Below, in pieces: positions 1 through 63,110 of a stretch of DNA of 64,000 nt; the stretch's first letter is position 1; the number at the start of each line of letters is the position of its first letter. The notes below the pieces were generated by a model. It saw only the letters and a list, made by a program, of their open reading frames with translations. It was not told where the DNA came from and ran no database searches. A program made the translations under genes and the position numbers. The stretch is from Octopus vulgaris (taxonomy: Eukaryota): NCBI GenBank assembly GCA_951406725.2, contig OX597843.1:18600001-18664000 (forward strand), read 5' to 3'.

Positions 1-2430
1 TTTACAGAGAGTTAAACAAAGAAGACTATATCAATAGACATCATGCCAACGACATCAGTGATTCAGTTATACTGGGAAGCAATATGGAACAAACCAAAAC
101 AATACAACAAAAATACTTAGAGGATTAATAGGGAAACGGGTAGGAAGAACACAATAGAACTACAGATATGTCCCACAATCACAAGCCAAGAGATCACGGA
201 CAACTGAGGAGTACCAGCAACTGGAAAACTTCAGGAATAAAGAAGATTCCCAACTTCTAGTTGGAACACCTCATCAGTACCCATAACCACGCAGCAACAG
301 CATTCAATTTATTGATGAGCCAGAATCAACATCAAACTGAATGCTGGAAAAATAAAGATACCGTACTTCCACAAAATTACAGACCAATAATATACCTATC
401 AACATCAAACAAAACCCTAGCATCAGTAATCCATAACCGGCTTATAAAGCATCTAGAAAACTACAATGTTTTACCAGAAGTAAAAAAAAGGGGTATGGGA
501 TAGGAATGCATGGCTGTAAGGAGCAACCTCTGGTAAACCGAGCCATTACAGAGGACTGTAAGAGGAGAAAGACAAACTTGAACATGACTTGGATTGATTA
601 CCAGAAAGCATTCGACAGCATTCCACACTCATGTATACAGGAATTTCTCCACACGAATAATATAGCCTCACCACTACCAAAATATTTTAAACACGCAATG
701 GCAAATCGGAAAATCAGTATAACATAAAAATTTACCCTACCCCGTGAGAAGAGGGATTTTTCAGGGAGACTCACTGTCAGACCCCTGCAGCTCTGCCTTT
801 CTCCGTCCCCGCTAACAGACTTGTTAAGCAAACCCACTATGCTATGGATAAAAAATAAAACATCTCCTGTACATGGGTTACCAAAACTTTTCTCTAAAAG
901 TACTATGGAACAGAGAAACCTAACCAAAATTGTCCATAGTTTCAGTAAGGATATAGAAATGAGCATGCGGCTGGACAAATGTGCCAGATTCACACCGAGA
1001 GAGGCAAATTAATCAGTACTGAAAACTCTGCACTCGACATAGACACAGAAATTAAAGAATAAGACCAAGATCGCTTATACAAATATCTGGGATTATACGA
1101 AACAGCTAAAATACAACACAGAAATATGAAAGAAACTTAGGAGAGAGTATTACAGAAGAGTTAAACTAATATTAAACACTGAACTTAATGCTAAAAAAAT
1201 AGGATAATAGGGATAAACACGCTAGTCATACCAGTCACAAATTATAGCTGTAACATAATAAACAGGAAGATCAGTAAATTGAGAAACCTAGATAGAAAAT
1301 TAAGAAGACTACTAACAGCGCACCGAAGTCACCACACCAAAGCAGACGCATGCAGAATATATTTATTCCACTTAGAAGGCGATTGTGACCTGATACAGAT
1401 AGAAAAATTACAATAAAATAACAACTGTTGGACTAAGGAAGTTCTTAGAAACAAAGTGTGGGAGACTATTGCATGTAGTTAAGCAACACGAGAATGAAAC
1501 AGAAGCAACGTTCACTGATACATTGATTTCAGATGATAGTATGGCGGAAATATTCAAAGAGATAAAAAAGAAACCTATGAAAATAGAAGTACAAAAGATA
1601 CTGAAGAAGAAATGAAGGGAAAATCACTCCATTGCCAATATCCTGCAAGGCTTGACCAAGAGGAAGTGAGCCTGAGTAAAAGCCAAAAATGGCTCAAAAG
1701 CTCAGGTCTAAAAGCTGATACGGAAGGATTGATTCCCGCTGCACAAGACCAATCTCTCACTACAAACAATTATAAAAATAAAATAAGGAAAATAGGCCCA
1801 ACACCAAATGCACAATGTGCAACCAAGACAATAAAACAGTTGACCACATCATTACGTGCTGCCCAGTCTTTGCCAAGTCTGAATAGATATACAGACACAA
1901 TAAGGTAAGCAGTTATATCCATTAGACAATATGCCAAAATTACATTAAAACTGACAATAGGTGGTATAAGCATATGCCAAAGAAGCTACAAGACAACGAT
2001 CAGGCCACAATCATCTGGGATAGGCCGGTTCAAACCAGCAAAGAAATAACAGGTAATCATCCAGACATGATAATCAAGGATTGGGGAAAAACACTTGCTT
2101 ACTTGTAGACAGTGCAGTACTTTCTGATAAAATAGATAAATACAATCCTCTTAAATACGAAATAGCCCGGCTATAGTAAATGAAGAAGGTGAAGATAGTG
2201 CCAATTATTGCCAGGTCCTTGGGAACAGTATCAGAAGGTATCAAGTGGAATATAGAGGAAATTGTAACAGAGTGCCTAGCAGAACTGTTACAAAAGGTTT
2301 GCCTCCTTGGCATGGCCAGAATAATCAGAAAAGTATTAGCTGAAAAGAACGGATAGCATAGTAGCCTAGACTGCAGATAGAAAGCCCGCTATGTATGCAA
2401 GACTCCGAGAGTTCAAACAAAACCTGTGAT
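1..2430 (+). mobile_element. Degenerate R4/Dong-type non-LTR retrotransposon (RT + zinc finger + restriction-like endonuclease), runs off the window start
   Basis: Frameshifted pieces read QNYRPI, GCKEQ, WIDYQKAFDSIPHS, LDKCA, YKYLG, KWLKSSGLKADTEGLIPAAQDQ and HPD, ending LGMARIIRKVL* at about 2343, followed by a short 3' UTR. Confidence 0.9.
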
Positions 2431-2439
2431 AAAAAGAAA

Positions 2440-4211
2440 TTGGATAATGGAATGTATGAACCTATTTGGTATTGCATCGAATATTGAGCGATTGCTCGGA
2501 AAAAGTATGGCAAATTGAGGGACGGACCTGACATAAGTTTAGGGAGAGTTGAAATCAGGAGGGGTATCTTCCAAGGGGACTGCCTGTCACCACTGATCTT
2601 TGTACTGTGCTTGATAACACTAACACTGATACTGAGGAAAGCAAAAGTTGGGTATGCATTCAAAAGCCGCCAACAAAAAGTCAACCATTTATTATTCATG
2701 GATGATATCAAACTTTATGGTAAAGACGAAGCCCAAGTCAGTTCCATCGTTTATACGGTGTATACCTTCAGTGCTGATATTAGAATGGAGTTCGGACTGA
2801 GAAAGTGTGGTATGTTAGATTTGAAGAGAGGCAAAATCAAATGAATGCACGGACTAACGATACCGTCGGAGGAGGTTATGAAGCAGATAGAAGAGACGGA
2901 CTATAAGTACTTGAGGGATTTTGGAAATGGATAAATTGATGGAGAAAGAAATGACAGAAACATTTAAGGAGGAGTACTTGCGCAGACTGAGTCTGATCCT
3001 TAAATCGAAATTAAATGGACGGAATAAGATGGAAGCTATCAACACCTGGGCGGTTTTAATCTTTAGATATGGAGCAGGGGAAATCGCATGGACAGTCGCC
3101 GAACTATACAGCTTAGATATAAAGACAAGGAAGTTGCTTACTAGATATGAGATACTCCAAACAAAAAGTGTCACAGACAGACTATATGTACCAAGAAAAT
3201 GAGGGAGAAGAGGACTGATTGGATGCGCACACAGCATTAGAGCAGAAGAAAACAACATAACAAAATGCCACAGAACCGTTATTATTAGAAGAAGGTGAGG
3301 CTTGTGTAGGATGAAATATTGCAAAGATAAAGCACTGTACGAGCAATTGAAAAGGAATGAAACTGAAAATAGGTGGGTAAAGAATATAGTGCATGGACCA
3401 TTTCATAGGGATGTTGAAATTAAGACAGACAGAGAAAAAAGATGACTGTGGATGACTTAAAGTGATTTAAAACCGGAAACTAATCTGTACTGCCCAAGAG
3501 CAAGCACTAAGAACAAACTACATAAAATACAGAGTAGACGACACAGCAGAAAGTGATAAGTGCAGAATCTGTGGACAAAATGGTGAAACCGTATGGCATA
3601 TTACCAGCCAATGTACGCCACTAGCACAGAAGGAATATAAGAGACGCCACGACAATATAGCAAGGCTTGTCCATTGGACAATTTGCAACAAATATGGACT
3701 TGATAGAGAAAAATATTGGTACGACCTCAAGCCCGAAAGCATCATCGAAAAGGATAATGCAAAGACCTTGTGGGATTTTATGATTCAGTGGGACCATGAG
3801 ATAGAGAATAGGAAGCCAGGCATAGTCTTAATTGAGAAAGAAAACAAACTATGCTGGATCATAGATATAACATACCCAGCTGACAACAAGGTATGCGATA
3901 AGGAAGAAAGAAAAGTCGATAGATATGACAGGTTAGCTTGGGAGGTAAAGCAGTTGTGGTCGATGAAGAAGGTGGTATAGTACCAATTATTGTCGGAGCC
4001 CTGGGAACAATGAGTAAAAATCTCGAGAAGTTCATGAAACAAATAGGGGCTGAAATAAGGGTGGAGCACTTGCAGAAAACAATACTCCATGGAACCGCTC
4101 GAATATTCCGGAAGGTGCTCGTAAAATAAGAGGTGTTGTGTTACTTTAGTTCCCTGGTAGTGAACAGCTGACAACGTAGTACATCTCCAGCGTTAGAAGC
4201 TGTGCAAAGGC

Positions 4212-4212
<1 letters not shown>
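2440..4212 (+). mobile_element. 5'-truncated R4/Dong-type non-LTR retrotransposon, second subfamily
   Basis: GIFQGDCLSPL, HLLFMDD, FGLRKC, LYVPRK, CRICGQNGETVWHITSQC (CCHC), RRHD, KVDRYDRL and GTARIFRKVL*; followed by an (AAT)n/(GAT)n tail. Confidence 0.92.
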
Positions 4213-4255
<43 letters not shown>

Positions 4256-4278
4256 CAATAATAATAATGATAATGATG

Positions 4279-4376
<98 letters not shown>

Positions 4377-4402
4377 AATAATAATAATAATAATAATAAT
4401 AT
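4213..4402. repeat. (AAT)n/(GAT)n microsatellite, tail or target of the Dong-like element
   Basis: Directly visible trinucleotide tract immediately after the 3' UTR. Confidence 0.95.
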
Positions 4403-12709: not shown

Positions 12710-13432
12710 GTCGGTATGTTGGCCACTCTTATAATTCCAGTTTATTATGTGTATTTATAAACATGGAGGAAACTAGGTCAAACGAATTGTCATGGTATTT
12801 GAACATAAACTTTACAATGATAAAGCACAATGCTCGGAAACCGTGTTGATCCGCTGAAATTTAGACCAACTCATCGCTATATTTTACCACCTACACTTAG
12901 CAAAGAACTGATAATTTGGTGAACTCATTTTATGATTTTAATTTTCCAACAAAGAGACTTTTCCTTACATTTTCTTTATACTGGACAGGAATAGGAAAGC
13001 GCCATCTTCATACTTTTGTATTTGGTTGTCTTGCAACTCTCTGAAAATAAAGAGACAAATATTACACACGTCAAGATAATTAAAAGTAAATAACTTTGTT
13101 TTCTGTTGTTCAATACCGTCTAAATTGCTCTTTTGTCAACACCAAGAGAATAAAAACTGATGCTCACAGACAATTGTTTATTTCTCTTCATAGTTCTCAT
13201 AGAAATGCTGTTTGAACAGGAATAAGTTTCTTCAATCTAACTTAATTATCCTTAGAGAATACATTCTACTAACCAAACAGCAAAAGATGATAAAATATAA
13301 AAATAAAGGAACAACGACACTTTATGTGCACAATATGGGTTTTACGTAACATTTTATTCATGTAATATATATATATAATAATAATAATAATTAATAAATC
13401 TCCGAACGAGATGTAAACAGTAACCTCTCGAC

Positions 13433-13755
13433 AACGTATAGTGTACTAGCCAGACAGTTTTTCTAAATCAGTGACTGTCGTTGCTGGGAAAAACATTAAA
13501 TAGTTATTTGCAAAGGTCTCCTTCATCGAAAACCGGTGTTTACCATACGTTGACGAGAGGCAAAAACCTTGAAACTATAGTCCGTATGTATCACTTAGGT
13601 TTTCGAGGGAGGATGACCTCCCTTTGCAAATATCATAAGTGAACAGAAATTGTGTCTAAGGCCAGCTGGAGACGTGGATCTCCTGGGGCTAAAAGCGTCA
13701 GTAACACCCACCCCCAGTGGCTAGCCACATTCAGATGGCTAGTACACTATACGTT
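13433..13755 (+). mobile_element. Rod-like, hammerhead-containing non-coding element (retrozyme-like)
   Basis: Perfect 20-bp terminal IR AACGTATAGTGTACTAGCCA (13433-13452/13736-13755); nested 12-bp (13505-13516/13621-13632) and 9-bp (13526-13534/13598-13606) IRs leading into an HHR; TAA-rich flanks. Confidence 0.7.
13544..13588 (+). ncRNA. Type I hammerhead ribozyme, U3 variant
   Basis: CATACG TTGACGA GAGG caaaaa CCTT GAAAC TATA GTC^CGTATG; predicted cleavage after 13582; C3 replaced by U. Confidence 0.8.
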
Positions 13756-13769
13756 AATAGTAATAATAT

Positions 13770-15440
13770 TAGGGAGTAAATCCAAACTTACAGTGAAAAA
13801 TTAGATTTAGGGTTAAATCAAATTTCACAGTATAAATATAAATTAAATTAGAGATATAACCATTATTAGGAAAATCAAACAGTTAATAATATAAAAATAA
13901 ATATAATTAAATATAATATACAAAATATATAAAATTCAAAATTTAAATTATTTAAATTTAAAATTTTTAATTTATATTTATAAATTTTTATATTTTTTAT
14001 ATTTTAAAAATTTAAAATTTATAAATTTTAAATCTTTTTATTATTTAATTTTTTAATTTTTTAATTTCTTAATATTTTTATTTTGTTAATGTTTTTATAT
14101 AACTATCAAAAAGTATTAAAAAGTTTAATATAATATAATTAAAACCACTACTTACGTTTCATGGCCATAACCCGATTCGAATTACAATAATTTAAATTCA
14201 ATTAAAAATTCGAATTATAATTATAGTCAATCTTCAGGTTAATGATAATAGTTAAATAAATAAGCAAATATAGTTAAACAATATTTTTAAAGAAATGAAT
14301 AAAATAATAATTTTTCTTATAAAAACTCCATTATCAAATTAGAATCTTTAACGATTAGGATTATGTCATACAATCCAATTTTAACATTAAATATTAATTT
14401 TTAAGGTAAAAATAGATAGAAAATGTATTTATTAAGATATAATAAGGTTTTAAAAAACATAATGAATTCACGAATAACCTAATCTCTGTTATAGTCAATA
14501 TCTAATTACCAAATTATTTAACAAAAAAATAATTACTATTCATATTTTTAAATTTAGGTTCAAATCTAATAAGAATAATAAGAATTTAAGAATAATAACT
14601 AAATTATTATCAATAAATGTAATAATTAAGATCTAAAATTTTCTCTAACAATAAATATATATATACGTATAATGAAAACTAAATAAATTAATTATTCCAT
14701 TATTACTTACGAAATATATAAAAAATTAAAGATGAAAAAGCAAATTATAAACTATCTTTAAAAAACCGTATAACTATTTAACGATCAATATATCTCGTTG
14801 GCCTATAAATCGTGTCATTAACTAAATTAATAATCAACAAATGGAAAATTATTTTAACAATGAAAACTACGAATATATTTTATCAATGAAAAATACTAAT
14901 ACAACTTATCAATGGAAAATGGCTATATTTAAGCTATAAGAGATGTTTATGAATATATAATATGGCTTAAAAACATAATAAACTCGCGAATATCCTTAAC
15001 TCAGTTATAGTCCAAAAATGTAATTACCAAATTATTTAACTAAATAATCATTTTTCATATTTTAGATTTAAGTACACATTTAATAGTTATTAAATATTTT
15101 AAAATAATAACTAAATTATTATCAACAAATATAGTGATAAAAATATAACATTTACGCTATCAATAAATGTATAGACATATAAAGAAAAATAAATTAATTA
15201 ATTTATCTAATACTACTTACATAAATATTAAATATTAATATAATATAATTATGAGATACATTAAAAGAATTAAAGATTAAAATCAAAATATAAACCAGTA
15301 ACTTAACTTTAAAAAACCGTAAGATAATTAAGTTTCTATATATCTCTTTGGCTAAGTAATATCTTACAAATAACGTAGAGTTATAATCTAATTATGTACA
15401 TATCTTTAACAACTAAATCATGAAATAACAATCAGTATTT
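13770..15440 (-). mobile_element. Extremely AT-shifted PLE-like relic with a diverged tandem duplication (about 14460-14810 and 14978-15350)
   Basis: Near-absence of G/C; duplicated block AATTACCAAATTATTTAAC...AATAATAACTAAATTATTATCAA; contains an HHR core. Confidence 0.45.
14143..14243 (-). ncRNA. Decayed type I hammerhead
   Basis: Minus strand: CTGAAGA, long imperfect stem II, GAAAC GTAA GTA; stem I only partly paired. Confidence 0.5.
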
Positions 15441-17053
15441 ATATAGTACTAGCATTAAAGACCCGTCGTTGCTGGGTCATAGTGCTAGTGCATGTATATA
15501 TGAGTATATATATGTGTATATATATGTGTACATATTACATGTACATCTATATATATACATTTACACATAAAATACAAAATACAACGTTATATCTTGATAT
15601 CGCTAGTGATAAAAATACTCAAAATATATAACAGACTGGAATTGTTAGCCCGTCTCTTGTAATTTCGATTAATTGTATCTTGTGCTCCCTCTTGTATACA
15701 AGTGTGGCTACAATCTAGCCTACCTCTACTTCTGGTGGAGGGGGGGCATTTTTATTTTTTTCCGGGACGGCCATCGTCGCAGATATAAAGGTAAAAATAA
15801 AATATTTCCACTTTGCAAGTTCGAGCCGAGTACTCCTTTGCAGGCTCCGTTGACTCAAACCTTTCTTCTATTGTGGCGAATTTACCGCCTCTGATTACAT
15901 ATCTTTCATAGTCGCACTAAGACACTTTTCGAAGGTGCTTTCCTACATGTGTTCAAATCTTTTTTTTCTACATTGTATACTTTATAGACAATAGTCTTTT
16001 CTTTAATTTAATTTTTTATTATCCATCTGGACTTTTCCATTTCTGCACGCTAATTTTATTTTTAATTTATTCCCATTCTTGTGAAACCACTTATTCAAGT
16101 TCAAGTCATTGATGCAATTTTATACCAATTGCTATTTTTACTTTTGTTATGTTACGATTATATTATATCTTTGTTTGATTTTAGTTATTACTTACTACAT
16201 ATAATTCAATTGTTATTATTATTTTTATTGTTAAAGTGAAAGTACCTGACATAAAATACAGAAATGTTTTTGTTTCACTAAAAGTACTCCAGTGGCAATG
16301 TAATGATATAAGAACTTTAAAAAAAATGAATTATTACAATAACATTGACTATCTTCAGACTAGTTCACAACTTTAAGCATCATATTCGAAGAACATAAAA
16401 CAATAAAAGTTCATCTTTAGCTTTTAGTAGAAAATAATTTGAACAATGAAGAAGAAAATGAAAAGTAAGGATACTTCATCAGACTTTATTGGAAATCATA
16501 GGCAAACAAATAGAATCATTAGAACACATCAACGTGGGTTCGATTGTTACCAATTATTCGTCGATTAAAGCCACATCACTTTTTCGTGGTTAATACTTTT
16601 TAACGTGGTTTTCAATGAAAGATTCTTCTCAGTGTGCACCTCTTGAAAAATCTGATTAATCTATAGTTTTCTTTTAAAAGGATTGGGATATGTTGATTCA
16701 AAGTTACTTTTCCCTTTACACTGCCATTTTCACACCATATATATTGAAATAAATTTCTAACTTCTAATTATTTGAGTTTAAAATGTAACTTACAACTCGA
16801 TCATCATTATACGAAAAGACCAATTTTAATTTGATTGAGAAGTGATTTAAGGAATAAATCTAGAAGTGCTGCGAGTAACTAACAGTTGTCATTAAGAGTA
16901 TATTCATAACTGCCGTGGGTGAATAATATATATATATATATAATTAATTAATAAGGGTGAGAGAATTAGATACTAATTTAATAGTATACCTATTCAACAC
17001 CAAGTGGCCCAGTGCCCCGAGAAACCTGGATTATTATAATATTTTATACAAAA

Positions 17054-17276: not shown

Positions 17277-17414
17277 CAGAAACACTAAATTTCTAAATCT
17301 CTCATAGAGACATGTACGGTGGTGGGGCGATAGAATGGTTGTATACTGTCAATCTAACACGAACGGGACAGTAGGGGGTACACCACCGCTGTTTAGCCCT
17401 AGGAAGCATCGACG

Positions 17415-17936
17415 AGAGTGAATGCGAGACCAAGGTAGAAGACAGGATGAGGAAGAACAAACACAGTACAAGGAACAACAAAGATTGATATTTCTGTGGA
17501 GAATGGAAAACATGAATGATATGCAGCGTGCGCAGTATCAGGACCAACAGAAAAGCGTAATGTAACAGACAAGGGAGAATATGGATGATTTGGAAAGGGC
17601 TGCTTTACTCCAAGGTCAAACAGAGAGACATCAAGATGGAGTTGCAAGTATGAATGCTGAACAGGCCTTACGTTTGCGAGATGAACAGCTGCAACGAAAG
17701 CGTGAAGGAAGACATGGACTACCACTAAACAGACACGATAATCCTAAACGAACCTATCGTATTGGTGATATGTACTTATATTGCGAGTATTGTGGGGCAC
17801 TGAACTTTAAATATGAAAACTTCATGTTCTGTCACAATAAGAAAGTGAATTTTACCCCACTGCAACTAAACCCTCAGACATTGAAGCGTTTGTCGAAGGG
17901 GAGACAAACACCCCCGGCCGCCCGGGCTGCATCTAG
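17415..17936 (+). pseudogene. Helitron RepHel N-terminal (zinc finger) fragment, copy 1, ending in hairpin plus CTAG
   Basis: IGDMYLYCEYCGALNFKYE..FCHNKKV matches the Helitron GxMxxxCxxCxA..F..E..CC..GKV motif; CCCGG-CCGC-CCGGG hairpin and CTAG at 17913-17936. Confidence 0.75.
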
Positions 17937-18873: not shown

Positions 18874-19059
18874 ATTGGTTGTGTAGTTCTCAAGTTTTAG
18901 GGAATCGTAGTTGAGAAGATATGATATTACTAATTAAGGCATGTGTAAAATTTGAATGAAATTGGTTGTGTAGTTCTCAAGTTTTAGGGAAACACACAGA
19001 CAAACAGACAGACACACACACACACACACACACATTCTCAGTTTTATATATATAAAGAT

Positions 19060-19965
19060 ATTACAATTAAGAAATATATACATTATAATTAAAATATATA
19101 TATTTCAATTAAAATCAAGGTGGACACACAGTAAATTCCATCTCTACAAGATCACGGTTGAGGTTGTAACTTCTTCTCATACATTCTGCCGTTGGTTGTG
19201 CTTCCGCTATGGGGGAGATAGAAATTCGCAGTTTACGGTTATTTGATCCTTGTTCCAATGCTGTGCTTATGAATTAAGCAAATTACAAAACTTAATTGAA
19301 CAATGGATAGTTAAAGGAGATTAGAAGCTACTCGCGAGAGGGTTGGGCACTACAGGCAGCGGATAAGAGAAGAACAGCAGTAAGAAACCAGAGAAAGGGA
19401 CAAATGGTACCAACAGATGAGAGGATCTGCAATAGATGAAGAGCAACGCAAAGCACAATTGTAGTGAGAGAGAATGCGAGACCAAGGTAGAAGACAGGAT
19501 GCGGAAGAAGGAACACAGTACAAGGAACAACAAAGATTGATATTTCTGCGGAGAATGGAAAACATGAATGATATGCAGTGTGCGCAGTATCAGGACCAAC
19601 AGAAAAGCGTAATGTAACAGAGAAGGGAGAATATGGATGATTTGGAAAGGGCTGCTTGTCTCCAAGGTCAAACAGAGAGACATCAAGGTGGAATTGCAAG
19701 TATGAATACTGAACAGGCGTTACGTTTGCGAGATGAACAGGTGCAACGAAAGCGTGAAGGAAGACATGGACTACCACTGAACAGACACAATAATCCTAAA
19801 CGAACCTATCGTATTGGTGATATGTACTTATATTGCGAGTATTGTGGAGCACTGAACTTTAAATATGAAAACTTCATGTTCTGTCACAATAATAAAGTGA
19901 ATTTTCCTCCACTGCAACCAAACACTCACACATTGAAGCGTTTGTCTGAGAAAATTACCAAGAGT
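19060..19965 (+). pseudogene. Helitron RepHel N-terminal fragment, copy 2
   Basis: R/E-rich region and CEYC zinc finger (ORF 19633-20007); collinear with 35245-36145. Confidence 0.78.
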
Positions 19966-24899: not shown

Positions 24900-27800
24900 T
24901 ACAATTAAATATATATTATAATGAAAGTACCAGGAGTGTAACTGTACAATTGCGAAGAGGTGAACTACACTTCAGAAGAAGGGATTATATAAGGCGTTAC
25001 AATTTTTCCACAAGCAATGAAATAGCTGCACAGTGAAAACAGAGACATTCTTGTCTATCCATGGAATTCACCTGCGGAGTGAATCGCGTAGACATTGTGC
25101 CATCTAGTCCCAATGAGTTATCCACTTCTATTCCCTCATGGAAAGTCCGGATGGCACTGTGAAATTCTACATGTGGCGAAACGCATAACATCCGCTCGCA
25201 GACGACTCATGATGTAATTTAGGGTTGCTAATTACAGTACCTTGGGGACCATCAGGCCCAGTTGCTCGTAGAGCAGAACAGTGGACTTATGGACTACCTG
25301 CAGAGAGGAGCTGATGAGAATGTTGAGCCAAGAGCTGTCCTCGGAGTATGCATTAATATTATCAGGATGTAATGCCGATTGCATCAGAGTATGGTAAACA
25401 AGACTTAATTGTCACATATACATCCAACCCTAAGTGCCATGAAATAGAAAATAATCTGCAGCGAAATGGGACACCAGGAAACTGGCCAGATTTGGTTGCA
25501 AGATTGTACAAGTTGCATCTCACTGAACGTCTGAAGGATATAAAGGACAGACACGTATTTGATGTATCAATAGCTCATGCCCATGTCGCCGAGTTTCAAA
25601 AGAGAAGGCTTCCACACTGCCATATGCTGGTAGACAAAGTGAAGATCAGAGATGATTTAGTTAAGAAATTCATGATACATGGCCTTTGTATGTAGAATGG
25701 CTCTTGCCCCAAAATGTTTCCCAAGAACTACAGAAATGAGATACTACTAAATAATAATGGATATCCATAGAACAGGAGGCGCAATAATGGGATGGCAGCA
25801 CAAGTTGGACTCCACTGTGTTGAAAACAGGTATGTCGTACCATACAATGCTTACCTATTAAAGCAATTCCGAGCTCATATTAATATAGAAGTTGGCTCCT
25901 CTGTAACAAGTGTCAAGTGCATCTACAAATAAATCTACAAATATCATAATAGCGATTCAATTGAAGTAAGGAATGATGCAATGGCAGAAAGCAAACAAAT
26001 TCAGCAAAACCATGGCGAAATCAGAAATTATTTTGTGTGTTGATACGTTTCACCTCCTGAAGCCATGTGGAGAATATCTCAGTACAAGCTGCATGACTCC
26101 TCTCACACTGTTTACAGACTAGCAGTTCAATTTGAAGACCGGGAGAGACTGTGCTTTCACAGAGGTAATACTCAGTAACCTACTCAAGAACAGAGATCGA
26201 TCGTGACAATACATTCAAACTGAATGAGCACGATGAAAATTAACGGAAATACTTGTGCCCTGACATTCCTTTACGTTATGTATTTGATGTACGTACAAAA
26301 TCATGAACACCCAGGAGAAGAAACAATAACATCGGCAGCAGATTGAACACAGTGAGTCCTAAGGACGTAGAAACATTTCATTTACGATTGCTATTTTGTA
26401 TGTTCCAGGTACTAAGCCCTTTGAAGAAGTGAACACTGTAGGAGGTGAAATCTATGCAACATTTAAAGATGCGTACATATGACTTGGTCTTCTCCAAAAT
26501 TATGTGATGTTGGAACATGCCATACTAAAGGTGCTGCACATCGGATGGCATTTCAGCCGCGTATCACGTTCTTTGTCCTTTGCACCTATTCAAAACCTTC
26601 TAATGTCCTTCGACTGAGGAACACTCACAAGAATACCATAATGGTAGATTATGTTCAGCGATGTTTGAATGCATACTCTACACTCTGTAAATTCTATGCA
26701 AATTGAAAATGGCATTAGCTGCCTTAATATTGGCTTGTCTGAACCAGTTCGAGTGTAACGGGTAGGGCATAAACATGACATGAACCACCCCGGCATTGCA
26801 ACCGTTACCGATGAACAGAGAGTGATCGCTGATGCAGTCATTGAAGACAGTTGATAATAAAAGGTGAGGTGAGGTGCTGGAATGTTCCTGCTTCTATGCA
26901 GCGGTTCCTGGAGGTTGGGAAAAGAATTACATATTTCATACGCTGATCTCACATCTACGAAGAAGAAACTATCAAGTGGTGCGTGCAGAGGCATAGCTTC
27001 AACATTGATGTCTGGTGGAAGGACGGTGCACAGTTTGCTCAAATTGCAGTGTACCACCCACCTCTGACTAGAAATTATTTGAGAAATTTGTATTTGATCA
27101 TTATAGATGAGGCTTCCGCGATCCCTCTGTATTCTTTTCATGCTAATGACAAAGCTCTGAAAGAAATCACTGGGAACAATGAAGGTTTCGGTTGAAAAGT
27201 TGTGCTCATTGGTAGAGACTTCAGGCAAGTTCTGCCAATATTGTCAAGAGGAACTCGTGAGGCAGTAATTCAGATCTCCATTAAGAACTCTCCTCTCTGG
27301 TTACACTTCAGACATTTATATGTTGAGCCAAAATAGGTCAACGACAGATCGAAGACAATTCGCAACATGGCCACAACACATTGACTATGGCACCACAACG
27401 CTTATGCAAGATCCAAGTGAGTCAATGATGATGTAAAAATGCTACATGATTCATGCTTTAATAGGTCGCTTATAAATGATGCTTTTTGGCAATGCCCCTC
27501 AAAAACAAAGAACAAGTAGAGTGATCCTCTCACCAAAAAGGTCAGACTGCTTAAAGATAAACGAAGGGGTTATGGATAAACTCCCAGGTGACCAGTGCTT
27601 TTATTACAGCATGGATAAGGTCTTCACAGATGACCTGCTGAAGCTGAGCGATATCCACTGGAATTTCTGATTTCAGGGACACCATCTGGAATGCCACCCC
27701 CTAGATTGCATTTGAAACCTGACTCCATAAAAATGCTCCTGGGGAATATTTCAATTCAAAATGGTCTCTATAAAGGAACAAGACTGGAAGTGGAGGCCCT

Positions 27801-35206: not shown

Positions 35207-35240
<34 letters not shown>
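33033..35240 (+). repeat. Module B, copy 3 (long form, microsatellite-expanded)
   Basis: Collinear with 53645-55975; includes a GAAGTACAA(GAA)n minisatellite at about 33570-33700. Confidence 0.88.
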
Positions 35241-35244
<4 letters not shown>

Positions 35245-35248
<4 letters not shown>

Positions 35249-36260
35249 CAGTTAAGAAATATACACATTATAATTAATATATATATATTTCAATTAAAAT
35301 CAAGATGGACACACAGTAAATTCCATCTCTACAAGATCACGGTTGAGGTTGTAACTTCTTCTCATACATTCTGCCGTTGGTTGTGCTTCTGCTACGGCGA
35401 GATAGAAATTCGCAGTTTACGGTTATTTGATCTTTGTTCCAAAGCTGTGCTTATGAATTAAGCAAATTACAAAACTTGACTGAACAATGGATAGTTAAAG
35501 AAGATTAGAAGCTACTCGCGAGAGGGCTAGGCACTACAGGCAGCGGATAAGAGAAGAACAGCGGTAAGAAACCAGAGAAAGGGACAAATGGTGCCAACAG
35601 GTTTGACAATCTGCAATAGATGAAGAGCAACGCAAGGCACAATTGCAGGGAGAGAGAATGCAAGACCAAGGTAGAAGACAGGATGAGGAAGAACAAACAC
35701 AGTACAAGGAACAACAAAGATTGATATTTCTGCAGAGAATGGAAAACGTGAATGATATGCAGCGAGCACAGTATCAGGACCAACAGAAAAGCGTAATGTA
35801 ACAGAGAAGGGAGAATATGGATGATTTGGAAAGGGCTGCTTGTCTTCAAGGTCAAACAGAGAGCCATCAAGATGGAGTTGCAAGTGTGAATGCTGAACAG
35901 GCGTTACGTTTGCGAGATGAACAGGTGCAACGAAAGCGTGAAGGAAGACATTGACTACCACTGAACAGACACAATAATCCTAAACGAACCTATCGTATTG
36001 GTGATATGTACTTATATTGCGAGTATTGTGGAGCACTGAACTTTAAATATGAAAACTTCATGTTCTGTCACAATAATAAAGTGAATTTTCCTCCACTGCA
36101 ACTAAACCCTCAGACATTGAAGCGTTTGTCTGAGAAAATTACCAAGAGTCTGCTTCATTTCGAAAAAAAACATCAGCAATTACAACTGCATATCTTCCTT
36201 TACGTCATTTGGTGTGAAACTCTCTGTGCCGCAAGGAAGAGGTCTACATTGTTTCCATAT
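35245..36260 (+). pseudogene. Helitron RepHel N-terminal fragment, copy 3
   Basis: CEYCGAL zinc finger, then ISNYNCISSFTSFG near 36172, matching the Helitron IRxYNxxFxFTSxG motif. Confidence 0.8.
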
Positions 36261-39949: not shown

Positions 39950-41212
39950 ATATATGGAGCAGGATATCAGTTGAGGTGCAAGGGAGTTAGTTAGGGGATG
40001 ACACAGGGGTGGGTGGGGGATTGTTGTTATTTCTACTTAGAATATGAATTGCATAATTTGTGTCGAGAAGTAAATATTATGCTATCCCGTTCATTTAAAT
40101 AATCGGTGGATTGCATAATGGAGAAGACTTCACAATGCAGAAATCACACTTGTTATAGCCGATATAATGCTTAGCGTGGATGGCCATAAACCATTTCAGA
40201 TTACAGGAAATTGATTTATGTTGAAGTTTATGGATTAGTCGAGATAAACAGGTAATGTCAGACAATGCTTTGTCTTAAAGGGTCAGTGTTAGTAAGGAAG
40301 ATGAAATGTGTTCTAGTTTTGTGGATATGAGGCTGGGGGTTCGGGTGAGTTATTTTATTATGATAAAGGTTACTAATTGTATGTTTCAAAGTTTCTTATA
40401 TGTTAAGATTTCGGATTGGCCCAACAATTTCAGTGGTGGTGGAGTAGGAAAATGTTATAGATTGTGGGTTAAATATTTTGGCAAAGGGGCTGGACGTAGG
40501 GAGATGCTTCTCATGTATGGTGAAGAAGAGCATGGGTACAAGGGGTCGAGTATTAAGGAGGAAGGGATTTGAACCAGATAACTTAACACGTACTTCTTCG
40601 TTTATTTCGATTGAGGAGTTTATCGGAGTGTTTAAAGAATTTTGGAGGTCGACACGGGTGTAGATATCGGCGGGCAGCGACGGGGTTAGGGTCCAGGGTC
40701 AACGAGTGATGAGATTGCTTGTTAAGTCTTCTACTCCTTGAAAATTTGGGAGAGTAGTAGGACGGTGGGTTATGCGGGATATTTTTTGTTTTATCTGGAG
40801 GTCGGGTGTATTCTTGGTTCCAAGGTGAGTAGAGGGAGGCTTGTTCCACCTATGGGTATATTCGATCGAATTCTTATAACCGGCGTGTTGTAAGGCGCAA
40901 TTATAATATTCAATGATTTGTTCGAATATTTCCTTACTGGCGGACAGTGATGAATCCGTTTTGATACGATTTCTACGATAGAGTTTAAGACAACTGGCGT
41001 TGTGGTTGAGGGAAAAGTTGGCGTAGTTAAGGTCCTCCTTAAGTTTATGGCATGGGTAGAAAATTTGGCTTTGTAGATCTAGGGGGACATCTAGGAAATT
41101 AGAAGTTTTAAGGCTGTTACAAATTGTTATGCAGAGGCCCACCTTTTTAAAAAGATATCTTAGTCTTTTTCTAATCTGTTCGATTCGGCGGTTGCGAGAA
41201 TCCCGAATGTCT
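39950..41212 (-). mobile_element. Penelope-like element, 3' part (RT C-terminus, linker, decayed endonuclease region)
   Basis: RIEQIRKRL..FKK.GLCIT, NFLDVPLDL, YYNCALQHAGY, KIFNPQSITFSYS, CDFC; paralog of 61840-62425. Confidence 0.8.
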
Positions 41213-41437
41213 ATTGTTTTGCTTGTCCATCTTGTCTGTTTTCTTGCTATTTATATTACTTTTTCTTCATCACCGACTTCTTCGTTGTTATTATTGTTGT
41301 TGTTGTTGTTGTTGTTGTTGTTCTTCTTCTTCTTCTTCTTCTTCTTCTTCTTCTTCTTCTTCTTCTTCTTCTTCTTCTTCTTCTTCTTCTTCTTCTTCTT
41401 CTTCTTCTTCTTCTTCTTCTGCTTCTTCTTCTTATTA

Positions 41438-41499
<62 letters not shown>

Positions 41500-41512
41500 A
41501 TTATTATTATTT

Positions 41513-41567
<55 letters not shown>

Positions 41568-41586
41568 CATTATTATTATTATTATT

Positions 41587-43823
41587 CTATGTTTGACTTT
41601 TGCTTTATATTTGTACAAGTTGGCTCCAAGTCTCACCCAGAGACCTCAAGAGACAACAGGGTTGGAAGTTCATGTTGTTGTTATGCCTAGAGTGCCATAT
41701 ATTTGGGGGGTGGGGATGTTGTACTAATGAATGTCTAAAAAAAAGTTGTTTTTTTTTTTTAAACCGAAAATTATGTTTGTTTTAAACCTTGAGATTACAT
41801 AGAGAGTATTTTGCGTAGGATATGAGCAGTTCCCATGAGCACTATCTTTTGAACTTCTGCCATTTTTGGGTTTCCTGGTATCTGAGTTAGGTAGCTATCA
41901 GCCCCTTTTGCTATCATTCCCAGGGCACCTATGACAACAGGTATTGTTTTAGTCTTCAGCTTCCACATTTTGCTGATTTCTATTTCAAGATCTTTATATT
42001 TGCTCAGTTTTTGGTAGGTCTTGACAGATACGTTTATATCGATTGGGACAGTCATATCAATGAGGAGGCATGTTCTTTGTTTGAAGTCTTTCAATATGAT
42101 GTCTGGCCTATTTGCATCTATCTTCCTGTCAGTTTGAATGGTGAAGTTCCAGAGGAGTGAGATGTGGTCATTTTCAAGCACTGGGGGTGGTTTGTGTTCC
42201 CACCAGTTTTTTTCATGGGGCAAATCCAAGTTTTTACAGATTACCCAGTGAATATATTGTGCAGCTCTATCGTGCCTGTTGAGATACTCTGTAGGCGCTA
42301 GAAGACTGCACTTGGAGACCACATGGTCGATGGTTTCATTTTGTTGCTAGCATACACGACACGTTGGACTGCTTCTGATCATTAATATGTTGGCCTGGTA
42401 GTTTCTTGTTGGTAGGCATTGATCTTGAGCTGCTATGATAAACCCCTCTGTTTCAGATTTTAAGCCAGAGGCCATTAGCCATTGATGGGTCAGGGCTTTG
42501 TCGATATCTGCATTATTCGCTCTCTTTGGGTATTTGCCATAGAGAGGTTTTTCTTGCCATTTATTATTCAGAATATCTAAGGCCGCAGTTTTGGCACGGG
42601 TTTTCATGCGCCTAGGTTTTTCTGTGCATGTTTCTTGTATATCTATCTCTAATTCCGAAATTGGTTGTATTCGGAATTCACTTAGATATTCCTTTGCCTG
42701 TTTTGTGACTGAGTATGATGCTTTCTTGTTTTCATGTTTTGAGACAAGTTTTAACATCCAGTCCTCAGAGTTTTTCAGGTAGGTGTCTAGGCCAATTGTA
42801 GCAATCTTCATTGTTATTGCCAGTTGCAAAAGACCACGGCCTCCCTCTTTTCTTGGCAGATAGAGTCGTTCTGTATCTGCCTTAGGGTGGTGCATTCTAT
42901 GCATTGTCAACAGTTTCCTTATTTTTCTGTCGAGCTGACATATTTCAGTAATTGACCAGTTAACAATATTGAAACTGTAAGTCACGACTGGTATAGCTAA
43001 TGCATTGATCGCTTCGATCCTGTTTCTTGCATTCAGCTCTGTCTTGAGTATTGCTCTCACTCTTCGATAGCATTCTCTCCTGATCCTTTCCTTCATCTCT
43101 GAATGCCTTATTCCGTTCCCTTCAATTACCCCTAGGTACTTGTAGCTCTCCGCTGGGTCTAGTTCTTTTATGACATTCTATTGGTCAAGGTTAACGTTAG
43201 ATGTTTCTGTCATTTTTCCTTTGATAAAGGTAGCCTTTGCACATTTATCGAGGCCGAATTGCATTCTGATGTCGTCACTGAATTGTTTGACTATCGCTAG
43301 TAAGCCCTTGAGTTGTTGATCATTTTTTGCAAAAAGCTTTAAATCATCCATGTAAACGAGATGATTTATATTTTTATCAAACATTTTATACCCATACTGC
43401 GCGTCATTGAGCAGCTTTGAGAGAGGTATTAAGGATAAACAAAAGAGGAGTGGTGACAGTGAGTCACCCTGGAAGATGCCACACGAAATTTTTACTTCAC
43501 CAGCATTTAGGGATTCACTGTCACTGTTCAGAGTTAGTGTGGTTCTCCATGATCTCATACTTACAGTCAAGAAGTTTCGCAGAGTTGGTGCTATCTTATA
43601 CATTTCAAGGCATTTCCTAATCCAGCTATGTGGTAGGCTATCAAAAGCCTTTTTATAGTATATCCAGGCTATTGATAAGTTTTTGTGTCGTTTGTGACAA
43701 TCTTCTAAGATCATCTTATTGATGAGTAGTTGGTCTTTACAGCCGTAGGATCCACGTTTACATCCTTTCTGTTCATTAGGGAATATGCTGCTGTCTGTTA
43801 AAAAACTATAGGTATATTCCGTC
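41587..43823 (-). mobile_element. Young 5'-truncated R4/Dong-type retrotransposon flanked by (TAA)n
   Basis: One reading frame from about 43820 to 41795 with two in-frame stops: [49 protein letters not shown]; TAA tracts at 43824-43885 and 41432-41586. Confidence 0.96.
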
Positions 43824-43887
<64 letters not shown>

Positions 43888-55984: not shown

Positions 55985-56900
55985 ATAGAAACAGACATCT
56001 TTTATAAACCCACTGATTCTAAACAATACCTATTATTTAACTCTTGCTGCCCCAAACACAAAACTTAATATATCGTTTAATCTAGCGAAAAGAATATGTA
56101 CCATATTTTCGGATACTTATACTCGTGAACAAAGACTCCTTGAACTTAGATCAACACTAGCTAAAAGACATTACCCAATCTCATTAATAAATGATGGCAT
56201 TAAAAGAGCTAAGGAAATAGATATACAAATATTAAGGCAAGCCAGCCGAAATACTAAACAAGACTTAAAAATACTCCCGTAGATTTCCACACATAACCCT
56301 AGAAACAACGAAGCCTTCAACATTATCACCCAAAATCTTCCCATCCTCACAAGAGACAATACAACGAACGAAATTTTAAGCTCACACAAAATTAAAAAAA
56401 GTAAACTGCAACCGAAGTCACTTAATAAAATATTAACCAGCGCAAGACTATATACACTAACAACAGAGCCAAAAGTGAAAAAATGTGGTCGTCTCAACTG
56501 TGGAACATGCCCCAACCTTTTGGAGGGTTCAGAATTCCACTTCAAACAAGGTGGAATATTTAAGATCAAATCAAATTTCACCTGCACCTCGGAAAATCTA
56601 ATCTATACCATGACATACTTATGATGAGGTAACCACTATATTGGACAAACAGGAATATCACTCCGCCGAAGAAGCACAATCCACAAGAAACAAATCTACC
56701 ACCCACAATACAGACAGTTACAGGTTAGTGAACACATAGAAAGGTGTGCTAGGAATCTTAATCCTAATTTCCAAATCTTCCCCCTCTATCAATGTTCACA
56801 GAACACGTCAATGCAACAAAGGTTGAATAAAGAGGCAATTATCATCAATACATATCTTCCCCAACTGAATATAAACACACAACTTAATACAGAACACATT
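55985..56900 (+). mobile_element. Penelope-like element 3' part with GIY-YIG endonuclease
   Basis: IETDIFYKPTDSKQYL, CGRLNCGTCP, FTCTSENLIY...HYIGQTGISLRRR, RLNKEAIIINTYLPQLN. Confidence 0.9.
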
Positions 56901-57422
56901 TAAGCCTTTAATTAACAACATAAAACCCTATACATTCCTTACACCATTCATATTACAATTCTATATCTAACCTTACTGCACAAAATCCAGAACTACTTAC
57001 ATCCCTTACAAATAATCTTTTTACTCCAGAACTATTAGACCTGACACCGTTCATTAGCCGGTGTTCATTCAAAGCAATGAATAGCTTATGACGAAAGCAT
57101 AGTATGCTTTCTGACTCTTTAATCATCTCATAATAAAGACATTTATGACTCTCATTACTACCTCAGTCCGTCTAAATGTATATATCTGTCGTTACCTTTC
57201 ATAAAAAGCTTTTCTTGTTTTATCTACAATGTGCATTTTCGTTGATTTTTCATATTTTCCCCTTACATTTCCACGTTTATTTTCTATTTTCTTCTTGTAA
57301 CATATTTCTACATACCTACATACATACATAGATACATACATATATACATACATACATATGTACATACATAGAAACATACATACATATATAGATACATACA
57401 TAAAAACATACATACATACATG

Positions 57423-61839: not shown

Positions 61840-63110
61840 TTAGAGAACCGGAACCAGATAACTTCACGTGTTTTTGTTATCTAATTCCGATTGATAGGTT
61901 TATCCGAGTATATAAAGGGTTTTGAAAGTGCATACGGGTGTTGATATCGACGGGCAGAGACGGAGTTAGTGTCCAGATCATATACTACTTTAAAATTTGG
62001 GAGAGTAGTAGGACGATGGGTTATGCGGGATATTTTTTGTTTTATCTGGAGGACGGGTGTATTCTTTGTTCTTCGATCGAATTCGTATGACCGTCGCCTT
62101 GTAGGGTGCAATTATAATATTCAGCGTATTGTTCGAATATTTCCTTACTGGCGGACAGTGATGAAATCCGTTTTGATACGATATCTACGATAGAGCTTAG
62201 GACAACTGGCGTTGTGGTTGGAGGAAAAGTTGACGTAGTTGAGGTTCTCCTTAAGTTTATGGCATGGGTTGAAAATTTGACTTCGTAGATCTAGGGTGAC
62301 ACCTAGGAAATTAGAAGTTTTAAGGCTGCTACAAAAAGGGATGCAGAGGCCCATCTTTTTAAAAAGATATCTTAGTCTTTTTCTAATCTGTTCGATTCGG
62401 CCGTTGCGAGAATCCCGAATGTCTCTATTGGCCCAGAATTACCCAGTTTTATCATATGTCGACGGGCAGCCAAGATGATATCAATATCGTCCACAAGAGA
62501 GGTTAGATAGAATCATTGCAAAAATGAGGACTTTGTTGAGAAGGATAGCGGATACACTAGAGTAATTTGGTCTATGTCCATCTGTATGAATTTAAAAGTA
62601 TGTTTAGGACTTTAGGAATAAAACCACTGGACGGTTTGAGTAATTTCAGTCCATATGTGTAGTGTGTACGTTGGATACAGTTGGGGGTATAATCCTGTCT
62701 GATGAAATCTTGCTAATCTTACCTATATCTGAACTGAAGGGGCAAATGAGGCCTTCTACGTTAATATGGAGTGAGCGAGTTATGGAACGTCTGGTCCTAT
62801 CTTCTAATGCGCGTTTAAAAACGAGATCACGATTCGTGATGTAAATGTCTTTTAGAACGAGACTGGTACAATACGGTATCATTTATGTAGTTATTTGTGT
62901 ATTAGCTCTCGGTATTTATCTAGAGGAGTGTTATAAAGGTTGCCGGGCTTGACGGCTTGGAAGAGAATTTCATAGTATTTTTGGAGACTCCTGAGGATAT
63001 TATTGATTTTAGTTAGGTGGGGTTTGATTGTTAATTTTCTAGGTTTAAAATTGATTTTCTAAAGCAGATTGGTAAGATGTTGCTCGAAATTATCTAGGTC
63101 ACGCTTAGGA
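61840..63110 (-). mobile_element. Penelope-like RT relic lacking the catalytic segment
   Basis: LICPFSSDIGKISK, FIQMDI, DIDIILAARR, then directly RIEQIRKRL and NFLGVTLDL; paralog of 40560-41212. Confidence 0.8.

Follow-up and report, generated by a model that had tools for sequence, protein, structure and literature searches.

A non-coding, hammerhead-bearing element of Octopus vulgaris with an inverted head, probably inserted into a TAA microsatellite by a Penelope-like enzyme

We analyzed a stretch of 64,000 nucleotides from the genome of Octopus vulgaris (assembly GCA_951406725.2, contig OX597843.1, positions 18,600,001 to 18,664,000 of the forward strand; hereafter the window, whose own numbering is used throughout). 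A 357-bp insert that carries a hammerhead ribozyme motif occupies positions 13399-13755 of the window, with a (TAA)5 tract to its left and a degenerate run of TAA to its right. This insert is likely to be a single, 5'-truncated, non-coding, retrozyme-like copy that a Penelope-like element (PLE) enzyme placed into the (TAA)n tract, an event during which its inverted head would have been made. It appears to work in the manner of a retrozyme, but we do not file it as a member of this class because a tandem arrangement of hammerhead units was looked for at the locus and is absent; there is one hammerhead, and no second unit exists within the window. A first-pass annotation of the same DNA had described the locus as an integrated copy of a structured, self-cleaving RNA. 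Geometry, size, GC content and the plus-strand fold support an element of the animal-retrozyme kind; for this copy, self-cleavage is predicted to be slow or absent.

Inverted head, one-sided tail and target site

The sequence anatomy of the insert, and the degree to which it exceeds chance, were observed directly. Two arms of 20 bp each (13433-13452 and 13736-13755) form a perfect inverted repeat around 323 bp, just as the first-pass annotation had stated, and this repeat surpasses anything seen in 5000 dinucleotide shuffles of the element, where the longest non-overlapping perfect inverted repeat was 15 bp and repeats of at least 12 bp arose nine times. The accompanying proposal that this repeat is terminal, in the fashion of a miniature inverted-repeat transposable element (MITE), holds on the right side only. 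There, the arm (plus strand) constitutes the 3' end of the direct unit and has no tail. The left arm (minus strand) is an inverted copy of this right end, and outside of it lie a further 34-38 bp of element-like sequence (13397/13399-13432, minus strand), whose outer boundary was judged by composition alone. Left arm and extension together form an inverted head of about 54 bp. As the earlier annotation had also noted, the element possesses a higher GC content (44%) than its left (27.5% over 400 bp) and right flanks (17% over 170 bp), and it lacks a substantial open reading frame (ORF), the sole ATG-initiated ORF of at least 20 amino acids being one of 26 amino acids on the minus strand.

The TAA-rich context that had been claimed for both sides is found on the left in the form of the (TAA)5 tract (13376-13396, plus strand), whereas the right flank (13754-13769, plus strand) consists merely of TTAATA (13754-13759) followed by a degenerate TAA run. 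The left tract likewise ends in TTAATA (13391-13396), which makes this hexamer a candidate 6-bp target-site duplication (TSD); it is not significant, as a 6-bp boundary match occurred in 548 of 5000 shuffled flanks. No significant TSD adjoins the arms of the inverted repeat, and the flanks of the two arms share no repeat.

These features resemble those of PLE insertions. PLE insertions often carry an adjoining inverted, 5'-truncated copy at their 5' end, so that inverted repeats come to surround the whole unit, and they possess a tail of 30-40 bp on one end only (10.1101/2021.04.23.441226, PMC8557442, PMC3846280). Their bias for microsatellites hides TSDs, which are often not discernible (10.1101/2021.04.23.441226, PMC8557442). 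At the single locus studied here, we find an inverted 5'-truncated copy that provides inverted repeats around the unit, an extension of 34-38 bp on the left and none on the right (with the outer boundary set by composition alone), and (TAA)5 on the left as the candidate target. In work with a purified PLE enzyme, both strands of the target were nicked and extended, ATT was preferred, reverse transcription began at two RNA sites bracketing the tail, and uncut RNA was accepted, also with an inactive ribozyme (PMC11167929). Retrozymes, in turn, co-occur with PLEs and resemble their pseudo-long terminal repeats (pLTRs), and solo monomers are common among them (bioRxiv 10.64898/2026.07.22.740005). 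Animal retrozymes are described as elements of 150-450 bp with a GC content below 50%, a high degree of base pairing and a canonical type I hammerhead, and are thought to be moved by PLEs (PMC7229834). With a length of 303-357 bp, 44% GC, 65-71% of its bases predicted to be paired and a hammerhead of this type, the octopus element falls within this description.

Beyond this anatomy, we infer the class of the element, its partner, the priming steps and its activity. The PLE enzyme would bind the uncut RNA of the unit and nick both strands of the A+T-rich target. A first cDNA would be primed at an inner start (about 13753-13755) and copied over at least 303 nt, and a second cDNA, primed at an outer start that lies 34-38 nt 3' of the inner one, would be copied over only about 54 nt. 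The two cDNAs would then be joined head to head, a step that is our own addition. The seemingly terminal 20-bp repeat would thus represent the overlap of both copies, and the one-sided extension would correspond to the tail of a PLE, which is bracketed by the two starts.

Read on the minus strand, the same ends can be seen as those of a non-autonomous Helitron2/Helentron (HINE, DINE-1-like) that moved as DNA by a rolling-circle mechanism, with the hammerhead as its cargo or as the source from which its ends were built. In such an element, which we consider an unlikely identity for the insert, a 5' subterminal repeat would be situated at 13755 with a nested inverted repeat 8 nt inside, and the 3' repeat (13452-13433) would lie 34-39 bp from the end, with a hairpin following 20 nt later; T at both ends, a T|T target and the lack of a clear TSD complete a set of end features that matches published descriptions (PMC4067079, PMC3627910, PMC11417382, PMC5148889). 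The inverted repeats are indeed asymmetric, with the 3' one positioned inside the end within the published range of 20-60 bp (PMC4067079, PMC3627910). The 5' hairpin formed from the repeat, the 3' hairpin and the T|T site are present as well, each modestly above chance and picked post hoc: 195 of 20000 shuffles had an inverted repeat of at least 7 bp nested in the right arm, where the element has one of 7 bp, and 989 of 20000 had a hairpin with a T after it, such as the 5-bp hairpin of the extension (13398-13412). Helitron remnants are also found in the window (Helitron_like_N, E 1.4e-21, 25357-25692). However, the 20-bp repeat is longer than the published 8-15, 12-15, 12-16 or <18 bp (PMC4067079, PMC11417382, PMC3627910), and together with its flank it nearly copies the 5' half of the hammerhead, a feature that an autonomous partner would have to share. 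Furthermore, the inner unit and its first hairpin (hairpin A, described below) fold better on the plus strand (z-score of hairpin A, -3.11 versus -0.83), no partner was found, and the titles and abstract openings matching both terms hold no description of a hammerhead in a Helitron. A canonical Helitron (Helitron1) was rejected: a TC does stand at 13399, and a palindrome with CTAG at 13742, but past this CTAG follow 13 bp that are a perfect inverted copy of the interior, and Helitron1 elements, which have no inverted repeats, offer no explanation for them.

The perfection of the 20-bp repeat would also suit a fixed composite family with inverted ends of its own, be it a cut-and-paste MITE or a DIRS-like element in which stem I of the hammerhead serves as the internal complementary region. 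The start of the left repeat has its complement in an internal stretch, and the end of the right repeat has its own in 13583-13588, an arrangement that is formally like the internal complementary region of DIRS elements (PMC8969392). Both complementarities, however, follow automatically from stem I and the inverted repeat, so that this likeness is formal only, and for the outermost 25 bp no clear complement exists in the interior (best match, 11/15). Since the left repeat is not terminal and no TSD adjoins it, and with neither a recombinase nor a transposase partner found, we judge such a family to be quite improbable. A short interspersed nuclear element derived from a tRNA was discarded as well; the window contains no tRNA, and neither an A nor a B box was detected by pattern search.

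Hammerhead motif and predicted fold

The hammerhead (13535-13597, plus strand) reads exactly as the first-pass annotation had written it, with the predicted cut between 13582 and 13583. Helix I comprises 6 bp, helix II 4 bp with the loop CAAAAA, and helix III 2 bp with the palindromic loop TATA; internal loop 1 resembles that of the Rfam family HH9. The three-helix geometry with an open stem I corresponds to the helix sizes of canonical metazoan hammerheads, 6/4/1-2 bp (PMC4209133). In the entire window, this is the only site found by our type I descriptor, which matched in none of 100 whole-window shuffles; among 20000 shuffles of the element, the loose form matched once and the strict form never. 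The Rfam model HH9 (RF02275) aligns with a chosen 76-nt stretch over its full length (model positions 1-77) with 33.6 bits and E 1.5e-7, the letters of loops 1 and 2 being kept; its gathering score is 52 bits. At gathering level, Rfam reported no hammerhead across the window, nor did it report one at E<=10 on stretches of 4001 and 386 bases, where other weak Rfam matches were treated as chance.

The core was compared with C3-U4-G5-A6-N7-G8-A9, G12-A13-A14, A15.1-U16.1 and H17. Two positions deviate from the usual C in that U is found at position 3, facing G8, and at position 11.1, facing G10.1; the other core positions are canonical, and the full core with its C3-G8 pair is therefore not present. 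The first of these changes had been noticed before, whereas U11.1 had been overlooked. C3 and G8 form a pair with a natural covariant U3-A8 (PMC3088659), and single changes at either C3 or G8 abolished cleavage by a PLE ribozyme (PMC11167929). Because the copy has U3·G8 and G10.1·U11.1, and C3-G8 is a pair whose single changes kill a PLE ribozyme, we predict that its ribozyme cleaves slowly or not at all; the literature searched offered no cleavage rate measured for C3U. U3 may be the state of the family, older than this copy, because the half copy at the end of the unit (see below) also has a T there, as judged by parsimony. A complete hammerhead on the minus strand was considered and rejected, as neither descriptor finds one in the element, and position 6 of the antisense half is U, with GAAA missing.

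All folds reported here are predictions. On the plus strand, 13430-13760 is predicted to fold with -127.9 kcal/mol (z-score -9.17; none of 100 shuffles as good), and when the arms of the inverted repeat are removed, the remainder still folds better than any of 200 shuffles on either strand (z-scores of -5.09 on the plus and -3.76 on the minus strand). The predicted structure is a multibranch fold with three domains. Hairpin A (13453-13496, plus strand) begins at the junction of head and unit, contains three G-U pairs, and is strand-specific in its stability (none of 200 shuffles as good on the plus strand, 33 of 200 on the minus strand). It is followed by an extended stem (13505-13632, plus strand) that prolongs stem I of the hammerhead across the cut site, with about 41 pairs, -46.3 kcal/mol, and z-scores of -6.58 (plus) and -4.97 (minus). 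The imperfect stem of about 40 bp that had been described earlier is thereby recovered with all of its perfect blocks of 12 bp (13505-13516/13621-13632), 9 bp (13526-13534/13598-13606) and 6 bp (stem I). The third domain, a branched 3' part (13640-13735, plus strand) with short hairpins at 13668-13683 and 13683-13717, is on its own not above chance (z-scores of -1.3 on the plus strand, 17 of 200 shuffles, and -1.69 on the minus strand, 10 of 200). A predicted 12-bp hairpin (13716-13748, plus strand) adjoins the right end, holds the 7-bp repeat nested in the arm, and is similarly stable on both strands (-15.8 kcal/mol plus versus -16.9 minus). The G-U counts of the whole fold, eight per strand, reveal no strand bias. 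A tally of 7 G-T against 0 A-C is skewed by the choice of its helices from the plus-strand fold and was set aside. Hence, the rod-like shape attributed to the element applies to 13505-13632 alone, and in place of the GACAGT/ACTGTC pairing proposed as the first hairpin, the predicted fold favours other pairings.

It had further been suggested that the locus derives from a circularly permuted, self-cleaving circular RNA with a native left segment, reverse-transcribed by a TAA-targeting, Dong-like non-LTR element (one without long terminal repeats) rather than by a PLE. An element with a reverse transcriptase (RT) domain does reside between (TAA)n tracts in the window (41441-43885; RVT_1, E 7.8e-20), and circles of plant retrozymes and viroids carry a segment complementary to the hammerhead (PMC7229834, PMC4918200). 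The insert, however, has no significant similarity to the 3' end of this RT element (only 9-mers, E 5.9), PLEs favour microsatellites too (PMC8557442), and head, tail and microsatellite are marks of PLEs. There is no evidence for a permuted circle in this copy, which lacks the terminal redundancy that would mark permutation. The circular fold still prefers the stem of the inverted repeat together with an open hammerhead. We regard this origin as very improbable.

Half-hammerhead copy at the end of the unit

A relationship that the first-pass annotation had overlooked connects the head of the element with its ribozyme. Positions 13424-13442 (minus strand) are antisense, with 17 of 19 matches, to 13542-13560, which comprise the 5' strand of stem I, the 5' part of the core and the 5' strand of stem II; such a match was reached in none of 20000 anchored and none of 1000 unanchored shuffles. 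In the sense direction, right end and left extension together can be taken as a degenerate half of a hammerhead, whose position 3 is T. Positions 13746-13755 repeat 13542-13551 (9/10), and pairing of this end with the first bases past the cut site is possible; the predicted 3' product of cleavage has 13583-13587 paired with 13749-13753 (P 0.63-0.80). The two hammerhead-like segments are 204 nt apart. A tandem unit of 204 nt was rejected, as the sequences preceding the two segments are unrelated (their score was reached in 459 of 2000 shuffles). As a separate observation, 13405-13419 in the outer extension are complementary (11/15) to 13537-13551, a second possible register on loop 1 and stem I of the ribozyme that may be due to chance.

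Because right end and tail copy the 5' half of the hammerhead at 17 of 19 positions, the inverted head is predicted to pair with the ribozyme and to block it in the nascent RNA. In equilibrium folds of growing transcripts that start at 13399, the antisense helix has a probability of 0.99 up to 13610, past completion of the ribozyme, and is supplanted by the hammerhead fold from 13620 onward. The predicted helices that compete with each other amount to -24.6 kcal/mol for the antisense helix, -32.7 kcal/mol for the repeat arms and -46.3 kcal/mol for the long stem. These predictions of a lock are based on one sequence. In plant retrozymes, a segment blocks their own hammerhead (PMC4918200), and most animal retrozymes are described as being without such a segment (PMC7229834).

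One may tentatively ask if the inverted head could instead be a fixed feature of a family that built its ends from its own ribozyme, either with Helitron2/Helentron ends or remobilized by PLEs; we consider this unlikely as a whole. Under such a scenario, the terminal repeat would be a copy of the 5' half of the hammerhead. The left end would act as an antisense lock during RNA synthesis that is released once the long stem and the far end are complete, and the right end would serve both as a decoy half-hammerhead and as the start for reverse transcription.

Copies, neighbourhood and comparison with known systems

BLASTN revealed no second copy of the element within the 64-kb window. The 20-bp repeat had no match in metagenome, viral and prokaryotic genome contigs, and a degenerate hammerhead pattern of the family likewise had none in the viral and the metagenome contigs; since such collections are not intended for animal DNA, the blanks say little. 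Among 24 listed public sequencing runs, 18 (from eight studies, with four organism labels) contain 20-46% of 35 sampled words of the element, two contain a small share (0.17) and four none, six runs that were left out of account; none of the 24 reached half of the words, and no RNA run is among them. Shares of 20-46% are expected from a divergence of 2.5-5%, and the shared words would fit either a family of elements or an orthologous locus, without telling which. In the titles, abstract openings and passages searched (supplements, Repbase and Dfam lay outside of this search), no paper was found to describe a Helitron2 that carries a hammerhead, a retrozyme that has an inverted head plus tail, or a unit that ends in a half-hammerhead.

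Insertion by a PLE enzyme has to be weighed against several of these findings. The half-hammerhead (17/19) at the end of the unit is not predicted by such an insertion, and the minus-strand ends, with their nested inverted repeat and hairpin plus T, fit Helitron2/Helentron as well. The head-to-head joining of cDNAs does not appear in the enzyme paper (PMC11167929), animal PLEs usually carry minimal rather than canonical hammerheads (PMC4209133), and the score against HH9 remains under the family cut-off. The candidate TSD lacks significance, no tandem arrangement exists, with unrelated sequence upstream of the two hammerhead-like segments, and the DNA of the PLE remnants in the window (55989-56900) is not significantly similar to that of the element. 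The study covers a single copy, the window contains no other, and five scans of sequence collections were blank.

Arguments over the enzyme behind the movement of animal retrozymes still draw on co-occurrence and on likeness of sequence. If the octopus element was indeed inserted by a PLE, then a retrozyme-type unit with an inverted head and a one-sided tail would provide direct structural support for mobilization by PLEs. Its repeated half-hammerhead touches a question left open in PMC7229834, namely how the RNAs of animal retrozymes avoid cutting themselves when their best fold frees the ribozyme. Should the insert prove to be a Helitron2, it would represent a ribozyme-bearing rolling-circle DNA element, of which no description was found. 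None of these implications is as yet shown from one copy with a damaged core.

The window is A+T-rich and replete with microsatellites and decayed transposons. A decayed PLE of the C-terminal GIY-YIG type resides at 55989-56900 (plus strand); its match to the Pfam GIY-YIG model has E 0.0019 and stays below the curated cut-off. Among its 12 longer homologues, RT is annotated in eight and GIY-YIG in six. Its sequence indicates that the PLE enzyme class is present in this genome, and as the partner of the element it is a candidate only. A C-x4-C-x2-C motif precedes the GIY-YIG domain (within 55989-57120), as has been described for Neptune/Nematis (PMC8557442). Near this PLE, at about 57088-57117, a decayed, minimal hammerhead-like hairpin can be discerned by eye. 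An oyster protein with 47% identity is the only named relative of one of the retroelement remnants in the window.

The RT element at 41441-43885 is of the non-LTR type and lies on the minus strand. It is presumably R4/Dong-like, in line with the Dong-like label of the first-pass annotation; what the searches themselves reveal is the RVT_1 match and the (TAA)n flanks. Similar broken RT pieces, also beside TAA tracts, are located at about 400-4400. Two further decayed RT pieces, at 40400-41250 (without a Pfam match) and 62150-62440, are related to each other and are, by their look, presumably Naiad-type Penelope elements. Three copies with about 95% identity (17414-17894, 19045-19965 and 35230-36149) presumably represent a Helitron-like N-terminal region. 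At 15446-15489, a hairpin plus CTAG followed by T on both strands has the appearance of a two-faced canonical Helitron 3' end; this hairpin has a 12-mer in common with hairpin A, which may be due to chance. An inverted repeat of 1115 bp with 98.6% identity (44995-46104/48464-49573) surrounds simple-repeat DNA and is either a young foldback-like element or a feature of the assembly. Directly downstream of the insert, 13770-15440 are very A+T-rich (17% GC in 14001-15000), contain a 300-bp unit that is repeated at 78% identity (14428-14729 and 14946-15238), and yielded no Rfam match above the cut-off. When the flanks of the element were compared with the window by tblastx, only weak matches resembling low-complexity sequence emerged.

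Members of the Rfam family HH9 are conserved intronic single copies of amniotes. The hammerhead of the octopus element is like Hammerhead_HH9 (RF02275) in its full-length match to the model (1-77) with conserved letters in loops 1 and 2, and unlike it in reaching 33.6 bits instead of the 52 bits of the cut-off and in its two core changes. The architecture of the locus as a whole was not one that the first-pass annotation could place. It does have two published precedents, the inverted insertions of PLEs and the ends of Helitron2/Helentron, although neither was found in the literature searched in combination with a canonical, retrozyme-type hammerhead. With HINE/DINE-1 elements of the Helitron2/Helentron type (PMC4067079, PMC3627910, PMC11417382), the insert shares, on its minus strand, asymmetric inverted repeats, a nested 5' hairpin, a 3' hairpin, terminal T residues and the lack of a clear TSD; it differs from them in that its 20-bp repeat is longer than published and resembles the 5' half of a hammerhead, and in that no autonomous partner was found.

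PLE insertions with an inverted pLTR and tail (PMC8557442, PMC3846280, PMC11167929) have in common with the octopus element the inverted, 5'-truncated copy at the 5' end, the resulting inverted repeats, the extension of 30-40 bp on one end, an A+T-rich microsatellite as the candidate target and a hammerhead upstream of the 3' end. Unlike them, the octopus element has no ORF, a canonical instead of a minimal hammerhead, a very short inverted copy (about 54 bp) and, as far as the remnants in the window were compared, no sequence link to a PLE. From animal retrozymes, it is set apart by its single hammerhead without a tandem unit, by U3 and U11.1, by the second half-hammerhead at the end of the unit, and by the combination of inverted head and one-sided tail, unreported for retrozymes in the literature examined. 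At the same time, it is like animal non-LTR retrozymes (PMC7229834, bioRxiv 10.64898/2026.07.22.740005) in possessing a canonical type I hammerhead within a non-coding unit of 300-360 nt with less than 45% GC, in its predicted pairing of 65-71% with a hammerhead that is free to form in the best fold, and in its occurrence as a solo monomer, a state that has been described for these elements.

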